64,000 nt of DNA from an uncultured bacterium (GTDB lineage: Bacteria; DAOPZR01). This document shows, piece by piece, positions 1,109-57,775 of the stretch; position 1 is the first letter of the stretch, and each line of letters begins with the position of its first letter. A program made the position numbers and the translations under genes. The DNA lies in NCBI GenBank assembly GCA_964517215.1, contig CAZFBR010000001.1, forward strand, positions 24,907 through 88,906. Reading direction: 5' to 3'. The notes under the pieces were generated by a model that was not told where the DNA came from, did no database searches, and saw nothing but the letters and a program-made list of their open reading frames with translations.

Positions 1109-1572
1109 CGACGGTACGGGGACCGATTCGGCGGCAGTGCGGTCTGCTGCCGGCGCGGAGGGCTGGCTGGCACGGTAATAGAGAAACAGGCGCACGGTTT
1201 CCCCCTGCCTGTTTTACCTGCCATGGTGCCTTGATGCGTCCAAGTTCATCAAGGAATTGCTGCAGTTCCTGCGGGGCGTTGCCGCTGGCGGCAGGGACGT
1301 GGCGATACCGCAGGAACAAGTCGATCCAGTATTGATAGAATCTCAACTTCTTGTCAGGAACATGGTGGACTGTGAGGTAATTACCTACTGCGGCTTGTTC
1401 ATCTGGTATCAGTGCTTGTCCCATAGTTATTCCCCTTTTTTGTGGATCAACCCTATACGGGTCTAATATACGGGCGCTGCATGATTTTCACCTCCGTTCA
1501 ATATTATCCTCCCACTGCCATAACATCCTTTCCAGCAAATAATAACAGTATCTATAACATTTCATTAACCTA

Positions 1573-1601
1573 TTGACATTCAACCCACCCAGTGGTACAA
1601 T
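1573..1601 (+). promoter_or_regulatory. Consensus sigma70-type promoter TTGACA-17bp-TACAAT (Pc-like cassette promoter candidate)
   Basis: TTGACA at 1573-1578, 17-nt spacer, TACAAT at 1596-1601; about 40-70 bp upstream of the first cassette ORF and divergent from the intI remnant. Confidence 0.5.
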
Positions 1602-1637
1602 CTAAAAATACGCTGTTATTCTACGGTTCTGTACAAT

Positions 1638-1964
1638 ATGAATGTTAGGCAGTGGATAGAGATAGTGATGACTGCGGATGAAAAGATGGAATGGCCAATT
1701 TGGAAATGCACAGCATTGACCGTCATGTTGTGTGGTGCTCCGGTCTTTGCGTCACCTTTGGGGTTCTCAATAATATCGGTTTTGATTTGGATGCTGCTGA
1801 TTATTATCTATGCCGGAATATTAAAAGTATTTGGTTCTAGTTTTGTGATAGAAGGCGCGATCATCGTACTTGTTATAGCGACTCTTGTTTTTGCGGGCGC
1901 GAAATATTTTACAAATAACCTTCAAGAACAACCCGCGCAACAAGAGATGACAAGCAATGCCTAA
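1638..1964 (+). CDS. Small integral membrane protein (3 predicted TM helices), integron-cassette-like; alternative start at 1668
   Basis: ORF in an AT-rich region; hydrophobic segments (LTVMLCGAPVFASPLGF, ISVLIWMLLIIIYAGIL, AIIVLVIATLVFAGA); its stop codon TAA lies inside the RYYYAAC box of the following attC-like repeat. Confidence 0.5.
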   Translation: MNVRQWIEIVMTADEKMEWPIWKCTALTVMLCGAPVFASPLGFSIISVLIWMLLIIIYAGILKVFGSSFVIEGAIIVLVIATLVFAGAKYFTNNLQEQPAQQEMTSNA

Positions 1965-2024
1965 CTTCGCGCCGCACCACGTTGGCGAAAGACGCGCCGA
2001 CGCGGTGAGCGCTATTCGTTGGCA
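1959..2024 (+). repeat. attC-like recombination site 1 (imperfect palindrome GCCTAAC...GTTGGCA)
   Basis: Begins GCCTAAC (RYYYAAC inverse core), ends GTTGGCA (core-like), internal imperfect dyad; about 80% identical in its ends to the second site at 2673-2736 (shared AACTTCGCG...GAGCGCT-N-TCGTTGGC). Confidence 0.5.
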
Positions 2025-2037
2025 TCCAAGAAATCAC

Positions 2038-2066
2038 TTGACATATAACGTTATACGGTATATAAT
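2038..2066 (+). promoter_or_regulatory. Consensus sigma70-type promoter TTGACA-17bp-TATAAT upstream of higB
   Basis: TTGACA 2038-2043, 17-nt spacer, TATAAT 2061-2066; ATG of higB at 2073. Confidence 0.55.
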
Positions 2067-2072
2067 GGAATT

Positions 2073-2360
2073 ATGATAGAGGATTTCCGGTGCAAAGAAA
2101 CCGAAAGGATCTTTCGGCGCGAGTATTCGCGGAAGTTGCCTGCTGGTATTCAGCGGGTTGCTTTGCGAAAATTACGAATGCTGAATCGGAGTTCGACCAT
2201 CGAAGACCTCCGCGTTCCTCCGGGGAACCGGTTAGAAGCCCTTTCCGGCAATCGGAAAGGCGAACACAGCATTCGAATAAATGATCAATGGCGTATTTGC
2301 TTTGTTTGGCGGAATGGTGACGCCCACGCCGTAGAGATCGTGGATTATCACAGGGGGTGA
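2073..2360 (+). CDS. higB: HigB-family toxin (RelE/ParE superfamily, plasmid maintenance system killer protein)
   Basis: 95 aa; LRVPPGNRLEALSGNRKGEHSIRINDQWRICFVWRNGDAHAVEIVDYH matches the HigB_toxin family signature; precedes the antitoxin with a 3-nt gap. Confidence 0.85.
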   Translation: MIEDFRCKETERIFRREYSRKLPAGIQRVALRKLRMLNRSSTIEDLRVPPGNRLEALSGNRKGEHSIRINDQWRICFVWRNGDAHAVEIVDYHRG

Positions 2361-2363
2361 ACT

Positions 2364-2660
2364 ATGAAAAAGATTCCGGTTGTACATCCAGGCGAGATAC
2401 TAAACGAGGAGTTTCTCAAGCCTCTGAACATCAGCCAAAACCAACTCGGCAAAGGACTCGGTGTATCCGCCCGAAGAATCAATGAAATCATCCACGGCAA
2501 ACGCGCCATCACAGCGGATACCGCACTAAGGCTATCTAGGTATTTTGGCAATTCCGCTAGTTTTTGGCTGGGTCTGCAAATGGACTACGAGCTCGATATG
2601 GCCGATGATGCCCTCGCCTCACGTATCAACAGGGAAGTCCAGCGCCTGAAGGTCGCATGA
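2364..2660 (+). CDS. higA: HigA-family antitoxin (XRE-type HTH)
   Basis: 98 aa; PGEILNEEFLKPLNISQNQLGKGLGVSARRINEIIHGKRAITADTALRLSRYFGNSASFWLGLQMDYEL is the canonical HigA HTH. Confidence 0.85.
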   Translation: MKKIPVVHPGEILNEEFLKPLNISQNQLGKGLGVSARRINEIIHGKRAITADTALRLSRYFGNSASFWLGLQMDYELDMADDALASRINREVQRLKVA

Positions 2661-2672
2661 CGACACAGCGGT

Positions 2673-2736
2673 GCCAACTTCGCGTTGCGGCGCTTCGCCG
2701 CTGGCGCGGATCAACGCAGAGCGCTCATCGTTGGCC
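2673..2736 (+). repeat. attC-like recombination site 2 (GCCAAC...GTTGGCC), paralog of site 1
   Basis: Starts 13 bp after the higA stop; GCCAACTTCGCG...GAGCGCTCATCGTTGGCC; dyad ends GCCAAC/GTTGGC. Confidence 0.5.
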
Positions 2737-2957
2737 GTATGAAGACGACAATTAGATTATGAGATAAAATGAAGAATTGATGAATTCGGAAATACGGGCA
2801 TTCTTACATCGTACGCGCGAGGCAAGTGGCTTCCGGACAAAAACGGAAAGGCGGAAATCGCCAGGTTGCGGCAGCATGCTCACTCGACCCTGCAAAAGAG
2901 TAAAAGGATAAACACAGTACCGCATCCCTTACGCACGGATCACAGAAAGCTCATCTG

Positions 2958-2986
2958 TTGACGCAATGTAAAAACTGTGATAAAAT
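2958..2986 (+). promoter_or_regulatory. Strong sigma70-type promoter TTGACG-17bp-TAAAAT upstream of tRNA-Cys
   Basis: TTGACG 2958-2963, 17-nt spacer, TAAAAT 2981-2986; tRNA starts at 3073. Confidence 0.45.
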
Positions 2987-3072
2987 CAATGATTGTACGG
3001 GTCGTGGTGTCGCTGCCCGGGCCGCTGGTCGGCCGGCGGGCGGCGGCGGTTTATCCCGCGACAGCGTAACGA

Positions 3073-3148
3073 GGCGGCGTAGCCAAGTGGCTAAGGCGAC
3101 GGTTTGCAAAACCGTTATTCACCGGTTCAACTCCGGTCGCCGCCTCCA
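3073..3148 (+). tRNA. tRNA-Cys (GCA), CCA encoded
   Basis: 76 nt; 7-bp acceptor stem GGCGGCG/CGCCGCC, anticodon stem ACGGT/ACCGT with loop TTGCAAA (anticodon GCA), T-arm ACCGG-TTCAACT-CCGGT. Confidence 0.85.
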
Positions 3149-3775: not shown

Positions 3776-3851
3776 GGGCTCTTAGCTCAATGGTTAGAGC
3801 ATCGGACTCATAATCCGGCGGTTCTGGGTTCAAGTCCCGGAGGGCCCACCA
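3776..3851 (+). tRNA. tRNA with CAU anticodon (elongator Met or lysidine-type Ile2; not initiator), CCA encoded
   Basis: 76 nt; acceptor GGGCTCT/AGGGCCC, D-arm GCTC-AATGGTTA-GAGC, anticodon loop CTCATAA, T-loop TTCAAGT; the G1-C72 pair excludes initiator; resembles E. coli ileX-type more than metT. Confidence 0.8.
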
Positions 3852-33251: not shown

Positions 33252-35951
33252 ATGACCGTGTTCAATCCGCCGGCCGACCTGCCGGTATCTGAATCATTGC
33301 CGGAGCTGCGCACGCGGCTTGCTGCCGCGTCGCAGGTGCTGCTGCATGCCCCGCCGGGCGCGGGCAAGACCACGGTTGTGCCGCCCGCGCTGCTGGCGGA
33401 GCCGTGGCTGCGTGGCCGGCGCATCCTGGTGCTCGAGCCGCGGCGGATCGCGGCGCGCGCTGCCGCAGCCCGGGTTGCCGAGCTGCTGGGTGATCGTGTC
33501 GGCGGGGTGGTTGGCTATCGCACCCGCCTGGAAACGCGCGTCTCCGCTGCCACCCGCATCGAGTTCCTGACTGAAGGGCTGCTCGCCCGCCGTCTGCAGC
33601 ATGACCCGACCCTCGACGGGATTGGTGCCGTTATCTTTGATGAATTTCACGAGCGCCACCTTACCGGTGACCTCGCGCTGGCACTGGCGCTTGATGCGCA
33701 GCGGCAGGTGCGGCCCGACCTGAAGCTCATCGTCATGTCCGCCACCCTCGCCGTGGCGGCGCTGCAGCGCCTGCTGCCGCAGGCCGCGACCGTCGCCTGC
33801 ACCGGGCGCATGTTCCCGGTTGCTATCCGCCACCTGCCGGAGACGCCGGACGACTATTGCGCCGCCGCTGTGGCGACGATCCGGCGTGCCCTGTCCGAAA
33901 CTGCCGGCGATATTCTGGTGTTTCTCCCCGGCATCGCCGCCATCCGCCGCGTGCAGCAGGCGCTTACTGACCTGCCGGCGCAGGTGGTGACGCTCTTTGG
34001 CGACCTTGCCGCCGACGAGCAGGATGCCGTGCTCCGGCCCGGTGCGCATGCCGCCCGGCGGGTTATTTTGGCGACACCACTGGCGGAAACCAGCGTGACG
34101 GTGCCGGGGGTCAGCGTCGTTATCGACAGCGGCTGGCAGCGCCAGCCGCGGTATGAACCTGCGCGGGAAATGACCCGGCTCGCCACCGTACGCGTGAGCA
34201 AGGCCAATGCCGAGCAGCGTGCCGGACGCGCCGGGCGGCTGGGCCCGGGCGTTTGCTATCGTCTGTGGAGCGCCGGCACCCAGCATGCCCTGCTTGAGCA
34301 TCCCGAACCAGAAATGCTGCAGGCCGACCTGGCACCGCTTGCGCTCGAGTTGGCTGCCTGGGGCGTGGCCGATCCTGCGACCTTGACCTGGCTTGACCCG
34401 CCCCCCGCCGGCGCTTTCGCCCGCGCCCGGGCCACCCTTGCAGCACTCGGCGCAGTGGAAGTGACGCATGCGCTGGAAGACGCAACGGATGCCGTCAACG
34501 TCAGTGCCGGTGCGGGTCATGACGCAGAAGAATCGCTGAATGCCGAATGTGGCACTGACAATTCACTGCACAGTAAGCAAGATTCAATCATCGTTCCCCG
34601 CGCCTGCGATGCGGGAGAGAAAGTGCGCGAGGCCGGTGAGAGTCAATATGGCCGGATCACACGGTCTGGCCGGCAGCTGGCTGCACTTCCTCTGCATCCG
34701 CGATTGGCGGCAATGCTGCTCTTTGGCGCTGCCCGCGGGCAGGGCGCGCTGGCGGCGGATATTGCCGCCCTGCTTGCGGAACGCGATATCCTTGCCCGAG
34801 CTGACAATTGCGATCTGGCGGCCCGACTGGCCGTCCTGCACGCCTGCCGGCGCGGTCGCAGGCCGCATGATTGTGACCGTAATGCTGTTGCCGCAGTGGT
34901 GCGGGTGGCGGCGCAACTGCACCTGCTGCTGCGGGACACGCCGCTGCCGAACGGGATACCGCTGGCCTCCGATGACGACACTGCCGGTATCCTGCTGGCG
35001 CACGCCTATCCCGAACGGCTGGGCAAGCGCCGCGAACCGGGGAATGATCTCTTTCTGCTCGCCGGCGGGCGCGGGGCCCGCTTGCGCGCCGGCGTTGCCC
35101 TCCGCGGCTGCGAATTCATCGTGGCCGCCGACATTGATAGCGGGCAGCGCGACAGTATCATCCATCTCGCTGCCGGTCTTTCCGCGGCGGCGGTGCGCAT
35201 CGCATTCGCTGACCGCATTTGCTGGCGGGAACGGGTTTTCTGGTCGGACCGCGACGGCGATCTCGTCGCCACCCGCGCGGAAATGCTTGATGCGCTGGTG
35301 CTGTGTGAAGGACCGTGGGAAAAGCCGGATCCTGCCGCTGCGACTGCGGCGCTGCTCACCGGCATTCGCGCGCGCGGGCTGGCAGCGTTACCCTGGCGCG
35401 AGGATGACCGGCAGTGGCAGCAGCGGGTCCTGTGTCTGCGCACCTGGCTGCCCGACGGGAACTGGCCTGACGTCAGTGATGAATGGCTGCTCGCCAATCT
35501 CGAACAGTGGCTCGCGCCGTCGCTTGCAGGTATCACCCGGTTTGCCCGGCTGGCAGCGCTTGATCTGGCGGCGGCGCTCAACCACCTGCTTGACTACCGG
35601 CAGCGTCAGCAGCTGGCGGCACTGGCGCCGACGCATATCACCGTGCCCACCGGCTCGTCCATCCGCCTGCGGTATGCACTGGGTCAGGCGCCGGTGCTGG
35701 CGGTGCGGTTGCAGGAGATGTTCGGCTGCGTCGCTACGCCGTGCGTGGCCGGTGGCAGGGTGAAGGTGCTGCTCCAGCTGCTCTCGCCCGCCCATCGCCC
35801 GGTGCAGGTTACCGACGATCTTGCCGGGTTCTGGTCCGGCTCGTATGCCGAGGTGCGCCGCGAGCTGCGCGGCCGCTACCCGAAACATGTCTGGCCCGAC
35901 GATCCGCGTCACGCTGCGCCCACCCGTCGCGCCAAGCCGCGCCCGCAATAG
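33252..35951 (+). CDS. hrpB: ATP-dependent RNA helicase HrpB (DEAH-box)
   Basis: LHAPPGAGKTT, DEFHER, SATL, HrpB C-terminal domain; about 70-aa low-complexity insertion near residue 420. Confidence 0.85.
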   Translation: MTVFNPPADLPVSESLPELRTRLAAASQVLLHAPPGAGKTTVVPPALLAEPWLRGRRILVLEPRRIAARAAAARVAELLGDRVGGVVGYRTRLETRVSAATRIEFLTEGLLARRLQHDPTLDGIGAVIFDEFHERHLTGDLALALALDAQRQVRPDLKLIVMSATLAVAALQRLLPQAATVACTGRMFPVAIRHLPETPDDYCAAAVATIRRALSETAGDILVFLPGIAAIRRVQQALTDLPAQVVTLFGDLAADEQDAVLRPGAHAARRVILATPLAETSVTVPGVSVVIDSGWQRQPRYEPAREMTRLATVRVSKANAEQRAGRAGRLGPGVCYRLWSAGTQHALLEHPEPEMLQADLAPLALELAAWGVADPATLTWLDPPPAGAFARARATLAALGAVEVTHALEDATDAVNVSAGAGHDAEESLNAECGTDNSLHSKQDSIIVPRACDAGEKVREAGESQYGRITRSGRQLAALPLHPRLAAMLLFGAARGQGALAADIAALLAERDILARADNCDLAARLAVLHACRRGRRPHDCDRNAVAAVVRVAAQLHLLLRDTPLPNGIPLASDDDTAGILLAHAYPERLGKRREPGNDLFLLAGGRGARLRAGVALRGCEFIVAADIDSGQRDSIIHLAAGLSAAAVRIAFADRICWRERVFWSDRDGDLVATRAEMLDALVLCEGPWEKPDPAAATAALLTGIRARGLAALPWREDDRQWQQRVLCLRTWLPDGNWPDVSDEWLLANLEQWLAPSLAGITRFARLAALDLAAALNHLLDYRQRQQLAALAPTHITVPTGSSIRLRYALGQAPVLAVRLQEMFGCVATPCVAGGRVKVLLQLLSPAHRPVQVTDDLAGFWSGSYAEVRRELRGRYPKHVWPDDPRHAAPTRRAKPRPQ

Positions 35952-36135
35952 TCCGCGCACCAGTGCACGGGTTCCCTGCCGAAATGCAATGTGGCAGAGA
36001 AGGGTCGGGTGCTGCGCAAATCCATAGTTGTATTACAAAATGATTAAAACCAAAAATTGATACACGCATTGACTTTAATATCGTATTAACATACAGTAAT
36101 GGTACGTGAAACTGGGAAATGACGCTGCAGGTTTG

Positions 36136-36186
36136 ATGGTGATGATAATGATGCTGATGCAATTGACACACAGCGCACGCGAATGA
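36136..36186 (+). CDS. Candidate 16-codon Met-rich leader ORF (MVMIMMLMQLTHSARE) overlapping the downstream start via ATGA
   Basis: ATG at 36136 to TGA at 36184-36186; 6 of the first 8 codons are Met/Ile/Val; sits between a consensus-like promoter (TTGACT-17-TACAGT) and the 36183 ORF. Confidence 0.25.
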   Translation: MVMIMMLMQLTHSARE

Positions 36187-36815
36187 CGCGCAGGATACAG
36201 GTGCCGGTATGGTGGGCGCTGTTCGGGTTGGTGTTGGTTGCCGCTGGTGTTTGGTGGTTCAAACAGCCCAAAGCTTTGGTTGCCGGCTATGACCCTCCGC
36301 ATAACCTGGTCGCATCGCTTTGTGGCGCTGACAGTACGACGTTGAATGCGCGAGTGCGTGCGGATTTTCTGTTGCGCGTACAAGAAAACCGTCGGGGTGA
36401 GATTCAGCGTGCATATCCGCAATTGGTTGAACATCCTGGTTTGGAGGGCTTCCTCCTGTCGCTGCCGGCATATGGCAAAAGGAATGCAGACGGATATGGT
36501 TGCCGTTTCGTCTTACCCGATGGCGGAAATGACACACTTGTCGTATTTCCCGAGTATTATCCGCCCCTTGAATTCCGCACGGCATCTGGTGAACAGGTTC
36601 CTACGCGGTTGGGGACCGATAATCAGGAATCGTTCCATGTTCTGTACCAACAAACCCGGCAGCGTTATTGGATGTTCGTGCAAATGGGGTGGGGGTACCC
36701 GGGGGTAATGTATGGCCCATTTGCTGAACCGGCAAGCTATCCGCCGGCTGTCGCAGAACAGCTGAACAAAGTGCGCCGTCAAATCATCGCCGATGCCGGA
36801 GGCATTGCCGATTAG
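36183..36815 (+). CDS. Hypothetical single-pass membrane protein (210 aa) in a low-GC islet
   Basis: N-terminal TM (VPVWWALFGLVLVAAGVWWF); no recognisable domain; G+C visibly lower than neighbours. Confidence 0.45.
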   Translation: MTRRIQVPVWWALFGLVLVAAGVWWFKQPKALVAGYDPPHNLVASLCGADSTTLNARVRADFLLRVQENRRGEIQRAYPQLVEHPGLEGFLLSLPAYGKRNADGYGCRFVLPDGGNDTLVVFPEYYPPLEFRTASGEQVPTRLGTDNQESFHVLYQQTRQRYWMFVQMGWGYPGVMYGPFAEPASYPPAVAEQLNKVRRQIIADAGGIAD

Positions 36816-37200
36816 ACAAGAACTGACCCCAGGGCGAATTGCCCTGTGCAGGGGTGGACTTCAACTGTGGTGCGCGCCGGGTGTTCGGCGGCAGCATATA
36901 TATGCAGGTGCCATTTGTTGTGCGTTGCTTGTGTGTTTCTTATGCCTTCTTGAATCATCCTGGCCGACAATATGTGCAGGTTTCAGCAAGGTGATATGCA
37001 GCATCAAACACGTCTGCACCAGGCATCGCACCGACTTGGACGCCGGCACATAAGTGCCTGACGGGTGCTCATCATTGCGGGATATCCTCATGTCGTTCAG
37101 GCACATTGCACTGCCGGGTGCCGGCAATTGACGGCCCGCGGGGAAAGGGCTATGATAACGGCATGGCATCCGCCGGAGCGGGCCGGGAGACGGGGACGCG

Positions 37201-38718
37201 ATGTTTGTCCGCCTGATCTCGGCCGCGCTGTTCGGGATTGAGGCGTACCGCCTCGAAGTCGAGGTGGACGTCGCCAACGGCATCCCCTGTTTCACCATCG
37301 TCGGCATGCCCGACACCGCCATCCGCGAAAGCCGCGAGCGGGTGCGCGCGGCGCTCAAGAACAACGGCTTCGAATTCCCCGCCAAGCGCATCACCGTCAA
37401 CCTCGCCCCTGCCGACCGGAAAAAAGAAGGCGCGGCGTTCGACCTGCCCATGGCGCTCGGCATCATCGCCGCCTCGGGCCAGCTCCGGCGCACGGCCTTC
37501 ACTGAGGTGCTCATTGTCGGCGAGCTCGCGCTCGACGGCACGCTGCGGCCGGTGCCCGGCATCTTGCCCATCGCCATGGACGCGGAACGGCATGGCGCGC
37601 AGTTCCTGCTCGTCCCTGCCGCCAATGCGGCTGAAGCGGCGGCGGTAATTCCGGCGGAACGCATCGTCCCGCTCGCCACCCTGGCGCAGGCGGTGGCGTG
37701 GCTGCAGGGCGAGCTGCCGCCCGAGGCGTTGCGGCTGCCGCCGCCGCCGGTCTGGCAGCCGCGCGACAGCGTTGACCTGCGCGAAGTGAAGGGTCAGGCG
37801 TCGGCCAAGCGCGCGCTGGAGATCGCCGCGGCGGGCGCGCATAACCTGCTCTTTATCGGTCCGCCCGGATCGGGCAAGACCATGCTGGCGCGACGGCTCC
37901 CCACCATCCTCCCTGAGCTGACCCGCGACGAGGCGGTGGCGGTGACCCGCGTCCACAGCGTTGCCGGCCTGCTGCCGGCGGGGCAGGGGCTGCTGCGCGA
38001 ACGGCCGTTCCGCGCGCCGCATCACACGGTGAGCGATGCCGGGCTGATCGGCGGCGGGCAGATCCCGCGCCCGGGCGAGGTTTCGCTCGCCCATTTCGGG
38101 GTGCTCTTTCTCGACGAACTGCCCGAATTCCAGCGCCATGTCCTCGAAGCGATGCGCCAGCCGCTCGAGGGGGGTGAGGTGACCATTGCCCGGTCGGCCA
38201 TGACGCTGCAGTTCCCCGCGCGGTTCATGCTGGTGGCGGCGATGAATCCCTGCCCCTGCGGCTTCCGCGGCGATCCGCGTCATGCCTGCACCTGCCGGCC
38301 CGACGAAATCGACCGCTACCTGGCGAAAATCTCCGGACCGCTGCTCGACCGCATCGACCTGCACCTCGAAGTGCCTGCCGTGTCGTACGATGAACTGCAG
38401 CAGCGCAGCGGCGACGGCGAGCATTCCGCTGCGGTCCGCACCCGTGTCGCCCGGGCGCGTACTATTCAGGCGCAGCGCGGTCCGCACTGGAATGCCTATC
38501 TTTCAGAAAAGGAAGTGCGGGCGGCGGTGGTGCTCGACCAGTCAGCTGAGGATTTGCTGCGCATGGCAGTTGACCGGCAGGGTTTCAGCGCCCGCGCCTA
38601 TCATCGCGTCCTGAAGGTGGCACGCACCATTGCGGATCTTGCCGGGAGTGATCGTGTCGCCACGGACCACGTCGCCGAGGCGCTGTCGTACCGCGCGCTC
38701 GAACGGATTCCCGAATGA
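37201..38718 (+). CDS. yifB: Mg-chelatase-like AAA+ ATPase YifB/ComM
   Basis: ChlI N-terminal domain (FGIEAYRLEVEVDV), Walker A FIGPPGSGKTM, sensor/arginine-finger region. Confidence 0.85.
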   Translation: MFVRLISAALFGIEAYRLEVEVDVANGIPCFTIVGMPDTAIRESRERVRAALKNNGFEFPAKRITVNLAPADRKKEGAAFDLPMALGIIAASGQLRRTAFTEVLIVGELALDGTLRPVPGILPIAMDAERHGAQFLLVPAANAAEAAAVIPAERIVPLATLAQAVAWLQGELPPEALRLPPPPVWQPRDSVDLREVKGQASAKRALEIAAAGAHNLLFIGPPGSGKTMLARRLPTILPELTRDEAVAVTRVHSVAGLLPAGQGLLRERPFRAPHHTVSDAGLIGGGQIPRPGEVSLAHFGVLFLDELPEFQRHVLEAMRQPLEGGEVTIARSAMTLQFPARFMLVAAMNPCPCGFRGDPRHACTCRPDEIDRYLAKISGPLLDRIDLHLEVPAVSYDELQQRSGDGEHSAAVRTRVARARTIQAQRGPHWNAYLSEKEVRAAVVLDQSAEDLLRMAVDRQGFSARAYHRVLKVARTIADLAGSDRVATDHVAEALSYRALERIPE

Positions 38719-38857: not shown

Positions 38858-39169
38858 ATGAATGATATCCAGCGTGATGAATTTCAGCGGTTTGCGGTAC
38901 GCTTGTGCGTGGCCCGGCGATTGCTCGGCGGGTTTCTGCTGATCGGCGTGGGGTTGTACCTGTTGTCGGCCGGCGCCTTTTTCGGTCTGCACGGCTGGGT
39001 GATGCATCTTACGCATCACTGGTACGGGCTTATTCCGCCCCAGGTCGAGCTGCTGTCGCTGCTCTATTTCACCGCCCTGAAATGCCTGTTTGCCGGGGTG
39101 GTGCTGCCGCTCTGGCTGAGCGCGCTGCTGACCGGCCGCTGGGTCGACCGCCAGCTCGGCGCGGCATAA
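38858..39169 (+). CDS. Small hypothetical membrane protein
   Basis: 103 aa, 3 hydrophobic segments; weak support only. Confidence 0.3.
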   Translation: MNDIQRDEFQRFAVRLCVARRLLGGFLLIGVGLYLLSAGAFFGLHGWVMHLTHHWYGLIPPQVELLSLLYFTALKCLFAGVVLPLWLSALLTGRWVDRQLGAA

Positions 39170-57334: not shown

Positions 57335-57775
57335 TCAGCTGATCTTGATCTGCCGCGGTTTGGTTTCCTCGCGTTTGGCCATGGTCAGGGTCAGGACCCC
57401 GTCTTTGTGTGACGCCTTGATGGACTCGTGATTGATGGTGTTGGGCAGCGTCAAAGAACGGGTGAAACTGCCATAGTCGCGCTCGACGCGATGCCACTGC
57501 AGATTTTTGTCCTCCTTGCTGATCTTCTTTTCGCCCTTGACCGTCAGGACTCCGTCATGCACCGTGACGTCAATGTCGCTTTGCTGCACCCCCGGAAGTT
57601 CAATCCGAACCAGAATCTCATTTTCCGTCTCCGCGATATCAAGCGGAGGGGAAAACAAGGCATTACCCTGCTGGGTTGGACGATTAAAAAAATCGTCAAA
57701 AATCTTGTTCACCTCATCCTGAACCCCCGATACTTCCGACCACGGCCGCCAACGCATGATAGCCATAACCACCAC
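57335..57775 (-). CDS. Small heat-shock protein Hsp20 (alpha-crystallin domain)
   Basis: PPLDIAETENEILVRIELPGV...GVLTV...G.F.R.L.LP; start could be an internal Met. Confidence 0.85.
   Translation of the reverse strand: MVVMAIMRWRPWSEVSGVQDEVNKIFDDFFNRPTQQGNALFSPPLDIAETENEILVRIELPGVQQSDIDVTVHDGVLTVKGEKKISKEDKNLQWHRVERDYGSFTRSLTLPNTINHESIKASHKDGVLTLTMAKREETKPRQIKIS

Follow-up and report, generated by a model that had tools for sequence, protein, structure and literature searches.

Genes without homologues (ORFans) that are A+T-rich relative to their host are well documented, as in the catalogue for Escherichia coli (PMC2275313). By definition, mobile insertion cassettes (MICs) carry a passenger gene but no transposase between inverted repeats, and a target duplication is usual; examples of these are MIC231 of Bacillus cereus and the qnrD and qnrS2 mic elements (PMC3913671). 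Here we describe an islet of low guanine plus cytosine (GC) content that lies between hrpB and comM (also called yifB) in an uncultured bacterium (GenBank assembly GCA_964517215.1, contig CAZFBR010000001.1, positions 24,907 to 88,906). This whole stretch of 64,000 nucleotides is referred to as the window, and all coordinates are window positions. The islet carries orf210, an orphan gene for a 210-aa protein, and the start codon of orf210 overlaps the stop codon of a Met-rich open reading frame (ORF) of 16 codons. In bacterial operons, overlapping stop and start codons at ATGA or TGATG junctions go with termination–reinitiation coupling. An original prediction about this DNA proposed a small horizontally acquired module with a leader peptide and its own regulatory RNA. 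We conclude that this is an ordinary acquired orphan-gene islet, possibly MIC-like, and not a regulatory RNA module.

The locus resembles the E. coli ORFan islets (PMC2275313) in that it has no homologue, has a G+C content below that of the host, consists of one gene in a short unit that includes a promoter, and is lacking at the syntenic position in the closest relatives. It is unlike them in that the host is an uncultured and deep-branching bacterium with only four related contigs, and neither a donor nor a phage context can be named. The anatomy of the islet fits the definition of a MIC, with mobility being putative. With mic elements it shares a size of approximately 1.1–1.5 kb, a passenger gene, and the lack of a transposase, and its short imperfect inverted repeats and short direct duplication are candidate counterparts of theirs. 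By contrast, published mic elements have inverted repeats of approximately 24 bp, whereas those of the islet are 14 nt (12/14), and no cognate insertion sequence (IS) or second copy was seen in the window. As in termination–reinitiation coupling, the stop codon of the upstream ORF overlaps the ATG of orf210 and this ATG appears to lack a Shine–Dalgarno sequence. Unlike in operons with such coupling, the upstream partner is a simple-sequence ORF of 16 codons rather than a gene, and a rival GTG preceded by AGGA lies 18 nt downstream. The attenuators trpL, hisL, pheL, and thrL also have a short ORF rich in one codon (here 5 AUG in 8 codons), but the islet has neither terminator and antiterminator hairpins nor room for them, the gene is unrelated to methionine supply, and there is no match in Rfam.

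Low-GC insert between hrpB and comM

The features of the insert, from left to right, are:

35976–35981 (no strand): CTGCCG, candidate left copy of a target-site duplication, 3 nt from the left inverted-repeat arm
35982–37110 (plus strand): lineage-specific low-GC insert and candidate transposase-less cassette; 1129 bp, GC 0.52 compared with about 0.68 for the host
35985–35998 (plus strand): left arm of the candidate terminal inverted repeat, TGCAATGTGGCAGA; 12/14 complementary, repeat pair I6
36069–36097 (plus strand): sigma-70-like promoter, TTGACT-17-TACAGT, in a tract of 23–28% GC; 9/12 in the promoter scan
36136–36186 (plus strand): Met-rich 16-codon upstream ORF, MVMIMMLMQLTHSARE; period-3 ATG/GAT/TGA tract
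36183–36815 (plus strand): orf210, orphan 210-aa protein with a domain of about 180 aa; from translation and coding periodicity
36207–36263 (plus strand): predicted N-terminal hydrophobic helix of orf210, residues 9–27; from hydropathy and AlphaFold2 (AF2)
36826–36855 (plus strand): GC-rich hairpin with the core CAGGGC-GAATT-GCCCTG at 36830–36846; dG –16.7, z –1.76
37097–37110 (minus strand): right arm of the candidate terminal inverted repeat, which reads TCAGGCACATTGCA on the plus strand; 12/14 complementary
37111–37116 (no strand): CTGCCG, candidate right copy of the target-site duplication, at offset 0 from the right arm; homology to relatives restarts here

The G+C content is approximately 0.68–0.70 on both sides of the islet and falls to 0.23–0.58 between approximately 35985 and 37100. 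When calculated in 200-nt windows, GC across the hrpB–comM interval is 0.41–0.58, and in 40-nt windows a minimum of 0.23–0.28 is reached at 36020–36100. This profile agrees with the sharp drop between hrpB and yifB that had been described originally. Overall, the insert is 15 points below the host in GC and its borders are sharp.

Relatives were found by protein searches with HrpB and ComM followed by contig look-up, and the resulting phyletic pattern rests on four related contigs. When the window was compared with three of these (L090, L092, and L085) by blastn and tblastx, homology ended at approximately 35941–35951, which is at the hrpB stop codon. It restarted at 37114/37115 in L090 and at 37118 in L085. 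Between these points, 35952–37114 showed no similarity to the hrpB–comM gaps of L090 (or its companion L091), L092, or L085, and orf210 is absent from the four closest relatives found. The proposal that this is a small horizontally acquired module is supported by foreign composition, absence from the hrpB–comM gaps of relatives, and definable ends. It had also been suggested that relatives might have hrpB directly adjacent to yifB as an empty site; the relatives do lack orf210, but their gaps are filled by other genes.

The islet sequence was found to be identical, with the same flanks, in several assemblies from at least three samples, and because of this recurrence we conclude that no chimera is involved. 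Six other contigs of this organism show a sole polymorphism in the islet, 36689 G>A, which is synonymous in orf210. Searches with blastn-short and tblastx revealed no paralogue of the islet above noise elsewhere within the 64-kb window.

Other parts of the window also have low GC. At 57335–57775 on the minus strand, the gene for a small heat-shock protein, Hsp20 (PF00011, 9e-26), sits in a patch with a GC of 0.53 in a genome of approximately 0.67, and therefore low GC here is not confined to orphan genes. A second low-GC islet (GC 0.37–0.56) at 1300–3100 adjoins genes for tRNA-Cys (3073–3148) and tRNA-Met (3776–3851). It contains a HigB-like toxin gene at 2073–2360 (PF05015, 1.4e-20), an HTH_3 antitoxin gene at 2364–2660, and a 108-aa orphan ORF at 1638–1964 that has hydrophobic stretches and no match in Pfam.

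Borders of the insert

The two inverted-repeat arms and the two copies of CTGCCG lie where homology to the relatives ends and restarts, and the reconstructed empty site reads ...GGGTTCCCTGCCGGGTGCCGGCAATTGAC... No such border repeats were found in the hrpB–comM gap of the closest relative, L090. For comparison, border windows with the same spacing were placed at random in the 64-kb window 3000 times. An inverted repeat this good was found near both borders in 94 of these placements, and in four (about 0.1%) an inverted repeat was accompanied by a direct repeat of 6 bp no more than 3 nt away, this being a test designed post hoc and thus only suggestive. In the segment, orf210 and all other ORFs of 50 aa or more have no Pfam match, to a transposase or otherwise. 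The combination of an inverted repeat and CTGCCG without a transposase suggests a cassette-like insertion.

Contigs L004 and L087/L089, from a strain variant with the single-nucleotide polymorphism at 36689, begin at 35982/35983, which is the first base after the left CTGCCG. L004 and L087 run through the right junction, and the two may derive from the same reads. The contig start at the left border may reflect a graph branch or a gap in coverage.

orf210 and its predicted product

We asked how far orf210 differs from chance ORFs. An ORF of at least 210 codons occurs in 2.9% of composition-matched random sequences. The chi-square for nucleotide by codon position in orf210 is 21.6, a value attained by 1% of chance ORFs, and the difference in GC between the first and second codon positions is 0.196, which none of 300 chance ORFs attained. 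GC by codon position is 0.645/0.45/0.559. GC at the third position (GC3) is accordingly 0.56, compared with 0.75–0.90 across 17 neighbouring genes, and is typical of a genome of approximately 55% GC. From its periodicity, length, and composition, we take orf210 to be a genuine coding sequence with foreign codon usage.

Homologues of orf210 were sought among 5.8e9 clusters with a word index and among 1.84e9 representatives with exhaustive phmmer, and both searches returned only self-matches. The same was true of plasmids and phages (tblastn and blastn) and of viral and metagenome contigs, and the orphan status of orf210 holds across approximately 15 billion proteins. Its own database entry is HNW93921.1, "MAG TPA: hypothetical protein PKM88_13515 [bacterium]", which is called from GTG 36201; the Joint Genome Institute (JGI) calls the 210-aa form. 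No domains were found in Pfam, NCBIfam, PHROGs, or PADLOC at E up to 1–10, and comparison with PDB sequences gave only noise (E about 1). The absence of a recognisable domain noted in the original prediction is upheld by these searches.

The N-terminus consists of MTRRIQ followed by 19 hydrophobic residues and is signal-anchor-like, with a Kyte–Doolittle maximum of 1.82 at residues 7–25. Single-sequence AF2 modelled only the helix at residues 9–27 with confidence (predicted local distance difference test, pLDDT, of 72–83). Hydropathy and AF2 both point to one N-terminal helix, in agreement with the single-pass membrane protein that had been proposed. Beyond this helix the structure prediction failed, with a pLDDT of 39.8 for the full-length protein and 34.8 for the soluble part. 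The remaining domain of approximately 180 residues has two cysteines and a predicted isoelectric point of about 5.9. The charges that flank the helix (RR versus KQPK) give only a weak bias toward an N-in orientation.

From these features, the N-terminal helix is predicted to anchor the product of orf210 in the cytoplasmic membrane. The domain of approximately 180 residues is probably outside the cytoplasm, a location that accords with its two cysteines. As a guess from its context, orf210 might encode an accessory envelope protein of an immunity- or exclusion-like kind.

Promoter and upstream ORF

The promoter upstream of orf210 consists of TTGACT at 36069–36074, a 17-nt spacer, and TACAGT at 36092–36097. 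Promoter-like sites are enriched in the 1.6-kb region, with four compared with 0.9 ± 0.9 in shuffled sequences. The original prediction had called this promoter strong; the elements are present, but a 9/12 match to the consensus makes the promoter plausible rather than strong. The spacing of the promoter elements predicts a transcription start near 36104.

The upstream ORF has five ATG codons in eight codons, which was seen in 4 of 5000 simulations. The same tract also reads as TGA x5 and GAT x5 in the remaining frames, and no tandem repeat was detected in it by Tandem Repeats Finder. One segment of the tract, GATAATGAT at 36143–36151, matches the first half of the E. coli Fur-box consensus. 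The overall match is only 12/19, and the site lies downstream of the promoter.

The TGA stop codon of the upstream ORF (36184–36186) overlaps the ATG of orf210 (36183–36185) as ATGA (36183–36186). The 16-codon Met-rich leader and its ATGA overlap with the start of the membrane protein are thus present as first described, except that the two codons share T and G rather than the A. No GGAG or AGGA that could serve as a Shine–Dalgarno sequence was found upstream of ATG 36183; AGG and GGTGAT occur before the upstream ORF or inside it. A clear Shine–Dalgarno sequence is likewise lacking in about half of the genes of the host. The rival start at GTG 36201 has AGGA at –10, lies 18 nt downstream of ATG 36183, and would give a product of 204 aa; this is the start used in the NCBI annotation. 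Given the ATGA overlap, translational coupling of the upstream ORF to orf210 is plausible.

The spacer between orf210 and comM

The 385 nt between orf210 and comM (36816–37200) have a flat GC by codon position of 0.57–0.60. The original prediction had placed a hairpin and a triplet of repeats in this spacer, and both are present, but the triplet is at the level of chance. The three ATATGCAGG-like words are at 36900, 36972, and 36994. Such words occur 12 times in the window compared with 9.75 expected, and a family of 9-mers with three copies appeared in 129 of 200 simulated 385-nt sequences. Because of this chance-level frequency, the ATATGCAGG and TGCAGGT motifs were rejected as binding sites. 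The hairpin begins 11–15 nt after the orf210 stop codon and is followed by GUGGACUUCAAC with no U tract, and its stability is only mildly unusual. The terminator scan revealed no intrinsic terminator in 36100–36260 or in the spacer, the hairpin included.

Folding of the spacer compared with shuffled sequences gave z values of +0.19 and –1.12 for the two strands, and the 5' region (36104–36260) gave +1.0. Rfam returned nothing in the region either at E of 10 or below or at the gathering thresholds, and over the whole window it returned only two tRNAs.

On the right-hand side, the insert gives way to the promoter of the next gene. The features that flank the insert are:

33252–35951 (plus strand): hrpB, ATP-dependent helicase, left flank; Pfam HrpB_C (5.8e-53), Helicase_C, and DEAD
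37128–37156 (plus strand): native comM promoter, TTGACG-17-TATGAT, outside the insert; 10/12 in the promoter scan and conserved in relatives
37201–38718 (plus strand): comM/yifB, Mg-chelatase-like AAA ATPase, right flank; Pfam Mg_chelatase (1.7e-96), ChlI, and Mg_chelatase_C

TTGACG-17-TATGAT is the top promoter-like site of the region. The alignments with relatives restart in the block GCCGGCAATTGAC-N17-(G)GCTATGAT, and this conserved comM promoter block reads GCCGGCAATTGAC...GGCTATGAT in L090 and TGCCGGTTTGAC...GGCTATCAT in L085. Because homology to the relatives restarts there, in a conserved promoter, we assign the last 90 or so nucleotides of what had been called a non-coding stretch to the native comM promoter and 5' region rather than to the islet. 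The 385-nt spacer is the 3' tail of the proposed cassette plus the native comM promoter and not a regulatory RNA, and the "non-coding stretch" should be split into these two parts, insert tail and conserved promoter. The idea that the module has its own regulatory RNA finds no support in the folding, the Rfam search, the chance-level repeats, or this assignment to comM.

Several other candidates in the region were rejected. Minus-strand and spacer ORFs at 36075–36434, 36259–36585, 36513–36782, 36812–36970, and 36793–37053 were not accepted as genes, having no match in Pfam and, in the spacer, a flat GC by codon position. The direct repeat D3 and the inverted repeat I1, which join the leader tract to 36975–37009, have 9-mer seeds that are expected by chance in 1.7 kb.

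Neighbourhood of hrpB and comM in relatives

Among the matches listed, the best HrpB match in the GTDB species representatives is 47–48% identical, and, of the loci listed in the search of the GTDB species genomes with HrpB, one had comM nearby. An exact 26-mer from the 3' end of hrpB had no match in metagenome contigs. The source of the window is an uncultured, deep-branching, high-GC, and poorly sampled bacterium. The four related contigs are:

L090/L091, groundwater metagenome, ComM 88%: hrpB–comM gap of 511 bp with an unrelated 96-aa multi-helix membrane ORF
L092, Logan, ComM 73%: hrpB–comM gap with a thiM-like kinase gene
L085, Logan, HrpB 55%: hrpB–comM gap with a thiM-like kinase gene and a 155-aa HD-like gene
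L093, JGI, ComM 68%: no hrpB; genes with STAS domains upstream of comM

The 96-aa orphan at L090:476–766 (and in L091) has several hydrophobic helices and a sub-threshold, MgtE-like match in Pfam (E 0.003), and small membrane ORFs appear to recur in the hrpB–comM spacer. The thiM-like gene, for a hydroxyethylthiazole kinase, is at L085:10199–11011 and L092:221–1033 and starts 4 nt before the hrpB stop codon. A tblastn search of the hrpB–comM gap of the window revealed no decayed remnant of thiM or of the HD gene.

This distribution points to an ancestral order hrpB–thiM–comM that was lost in the lineage of the window. Because the contents of the gap differ beside a retained hrpB...comM, the comparison of these contigs indicates that the neighbourhood is old and that its filling turns over.

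Two further observations concern the flanking genes. Directly 3' of comM, the window has a 103-aa ORF (38858–39169, plus strand) with no Pfam match, and L092 has a 104-aa ORF (2755–3069) at the matching position. In addition, the JGI contig L086 has four clustered C>T differences in hrpB within 7 nt (35099, 35100, 35103, and 35105); L086 differs from the window at 18 positions over 22.7 kb, and by comparison the cluster at 35099–35105 is odd.

Discussion

Taken as a whole, the locus is probably best explained as a lineage-specific insertion of approximately 1.13 kb, with one real orphan gene, downstream of hrpB and ahead of the comM promoter. According to this explanation, 35982–37110 would have landed in the short spacer that runs from the hrpB stop codon to the comM promoter, and would have brought orf210 together with its own AT-rich, sigma-70-type promoter. 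Arrival would most likely have been by a transposition-type event, with a non-autonomous element resembling a MIC, whose candidate ends are TGCAATGTGSCWGA and the flanking CTGCCG, being mobilised in trans. Transcription would then begin at approximately 36104. Ribosomes would translate the Met-rich ORF of 16 codons and reinitiate at the overlapping ATG 36183 or, alternatively, would start at GTG 36201 behind its AGGA. Because there is no intrinsic terminator after orf210, some read-through into comM is possible; comM retains its own conserved promoter.

Several points weigh against the insertion explanation or parts of it. Low GC by itself does not prove transfer, and the core-type hsp20 gene in the window is also low. 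The inverted repeat is short, and by itself a repeat like it lies near both borders in approximately 3% of random placements. The left CTGCCG is separated by 3 nt from the inverted-repeat arm, and the test of inverted repeat and duplication was devised after the repeats had been seen. No second copy of TGCAATGTGSCWGA and no cognate IS were found within the 64-kb window, and there is no true empty site among the relatives, where the gaps carry other genes. The period-3 ATG tract could be a functionless product of slippage. For orf210, AF2 stayed below a pLDDT of 40 and a fold class was not obtained. It would be a considerably bolder claim, and one that we hold to be quite improbable, that 35982–37110 is an active transposase-less cassette from an IS lineage not yet described, which has the termini TGCAATGTG...CACATTGCA and duplicates 6 bp, that its product is an envelope protein of novel fold whose synthesis is gated by termination–reinitiation from the Met-rich micro-ORF, and that the hrpB–comM spacer is a recurrent landing site in this lineage.

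The insert might instead be native, with a decayed remnant of hrpB–thiM–comM or an old intergenic region having yielded an orphan gene by fast or de novo evolution. We consider this unlikely. The gap of the more distant relatives contains thiM, which makes an ancestral gene at this site probable, and the small orphan membrane ORF in the closest relative suggests rapid local turnover; in addition, no donor can be named. Against this, neither protein nor DNA similarity to thiM, the HD-like gene, or the 96-aa ORF remains, and the drop in GC with its sharp borders is unlike gradual decay. The clear coding periodicity of orf210, a GC3 suited to a genome of another composition, and the inverted and direct repeats at the borders also count against a native origin. 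That orf210 is non-functional, and the patch inert junk DNA or an artefact of assembly, we find hardly credible. It has no homologues and no confident structure, and its length alone could arise in random sequence, as described above. But its periodicity exceeds that of chance ORFs, its N-terminus has RR and then 19 hydrophobic residues in the manner of a signal anchor, the only polymorphism is synonymous, and the same sequence and flanks are seen in independent assemblies.

The remaining alternatives concern what the islet does. It could be a leader-peptide or regulatory-RNA module in which the Met-rich leader senses Met-tRNA or stalling and controls orf210, and in which the spacer is a small RNA with ATATGCAGG sites. 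The rare run of Met codons, the real ATGA overlap, the hairpin after orf210, and the enrichment of promoter-like sites all fit such a module. Yet stop and start overlap by 2 nt, and the 5' region and the spacer are devoid of terminator-like sites; with no room for alternative terminator and antiterminator hairpins and no terminator, an attenuator is not possible. This and the lack of any link between orf210 and the methionine pathway leave the leader-peptide attenuator suggested in the original prediction unsupported. Since both regions also fold at the level of shuffled sequences, Rfam has no match, the ATATGCAGG triplet is at chance level, and the 90 nt on the right belong to the conserved comM promoter, the module as a whole is very improbable. 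A different proposal, which is compatible with the insertion, is that orf210 encodes a membrane-anchored immunity, exclusion, or defence protein, directed for example at a phage or at a toxin that targets the envelope, and that it would be retained for the protection it gives to the cell. The small size, AT-richness, and lineage-specificity of the islet, its promoter, and the predicted membrane anchor of its product would suit this, and the second low-GC islet in the window has a HigB/HigA pair beside tRNA genes. But there is no PADLOC or PHROG match at E of 10, and the neighbours are housekeeping genes with no adjacent toxin partner, secretion-system, phage, or defence genes. As this proposal is drawn purely from the type of context, we give it a slim chance.

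The wider significance is small, and the locus adds one more strict orphan in an islet of foreign composition from a poorly sampled lineage. It is only mildly unusual, in its strict orphan status, its borders at the level of nucleotides, and its micro-ORF of Met codons. For annotation, orf210 merits being listed as a real gene with the ambiguity between the ATG and GTG starts flagged. The hrpB–comM spacer is a variable spot of this lineage, with four fillings in five related contigs. If the borders are confirmed, the islet would be a clean, small example of orphan genes being delivered as transposase-less cassettes, and its termini could then be used to search for the cognate IS and for sister cassettes.

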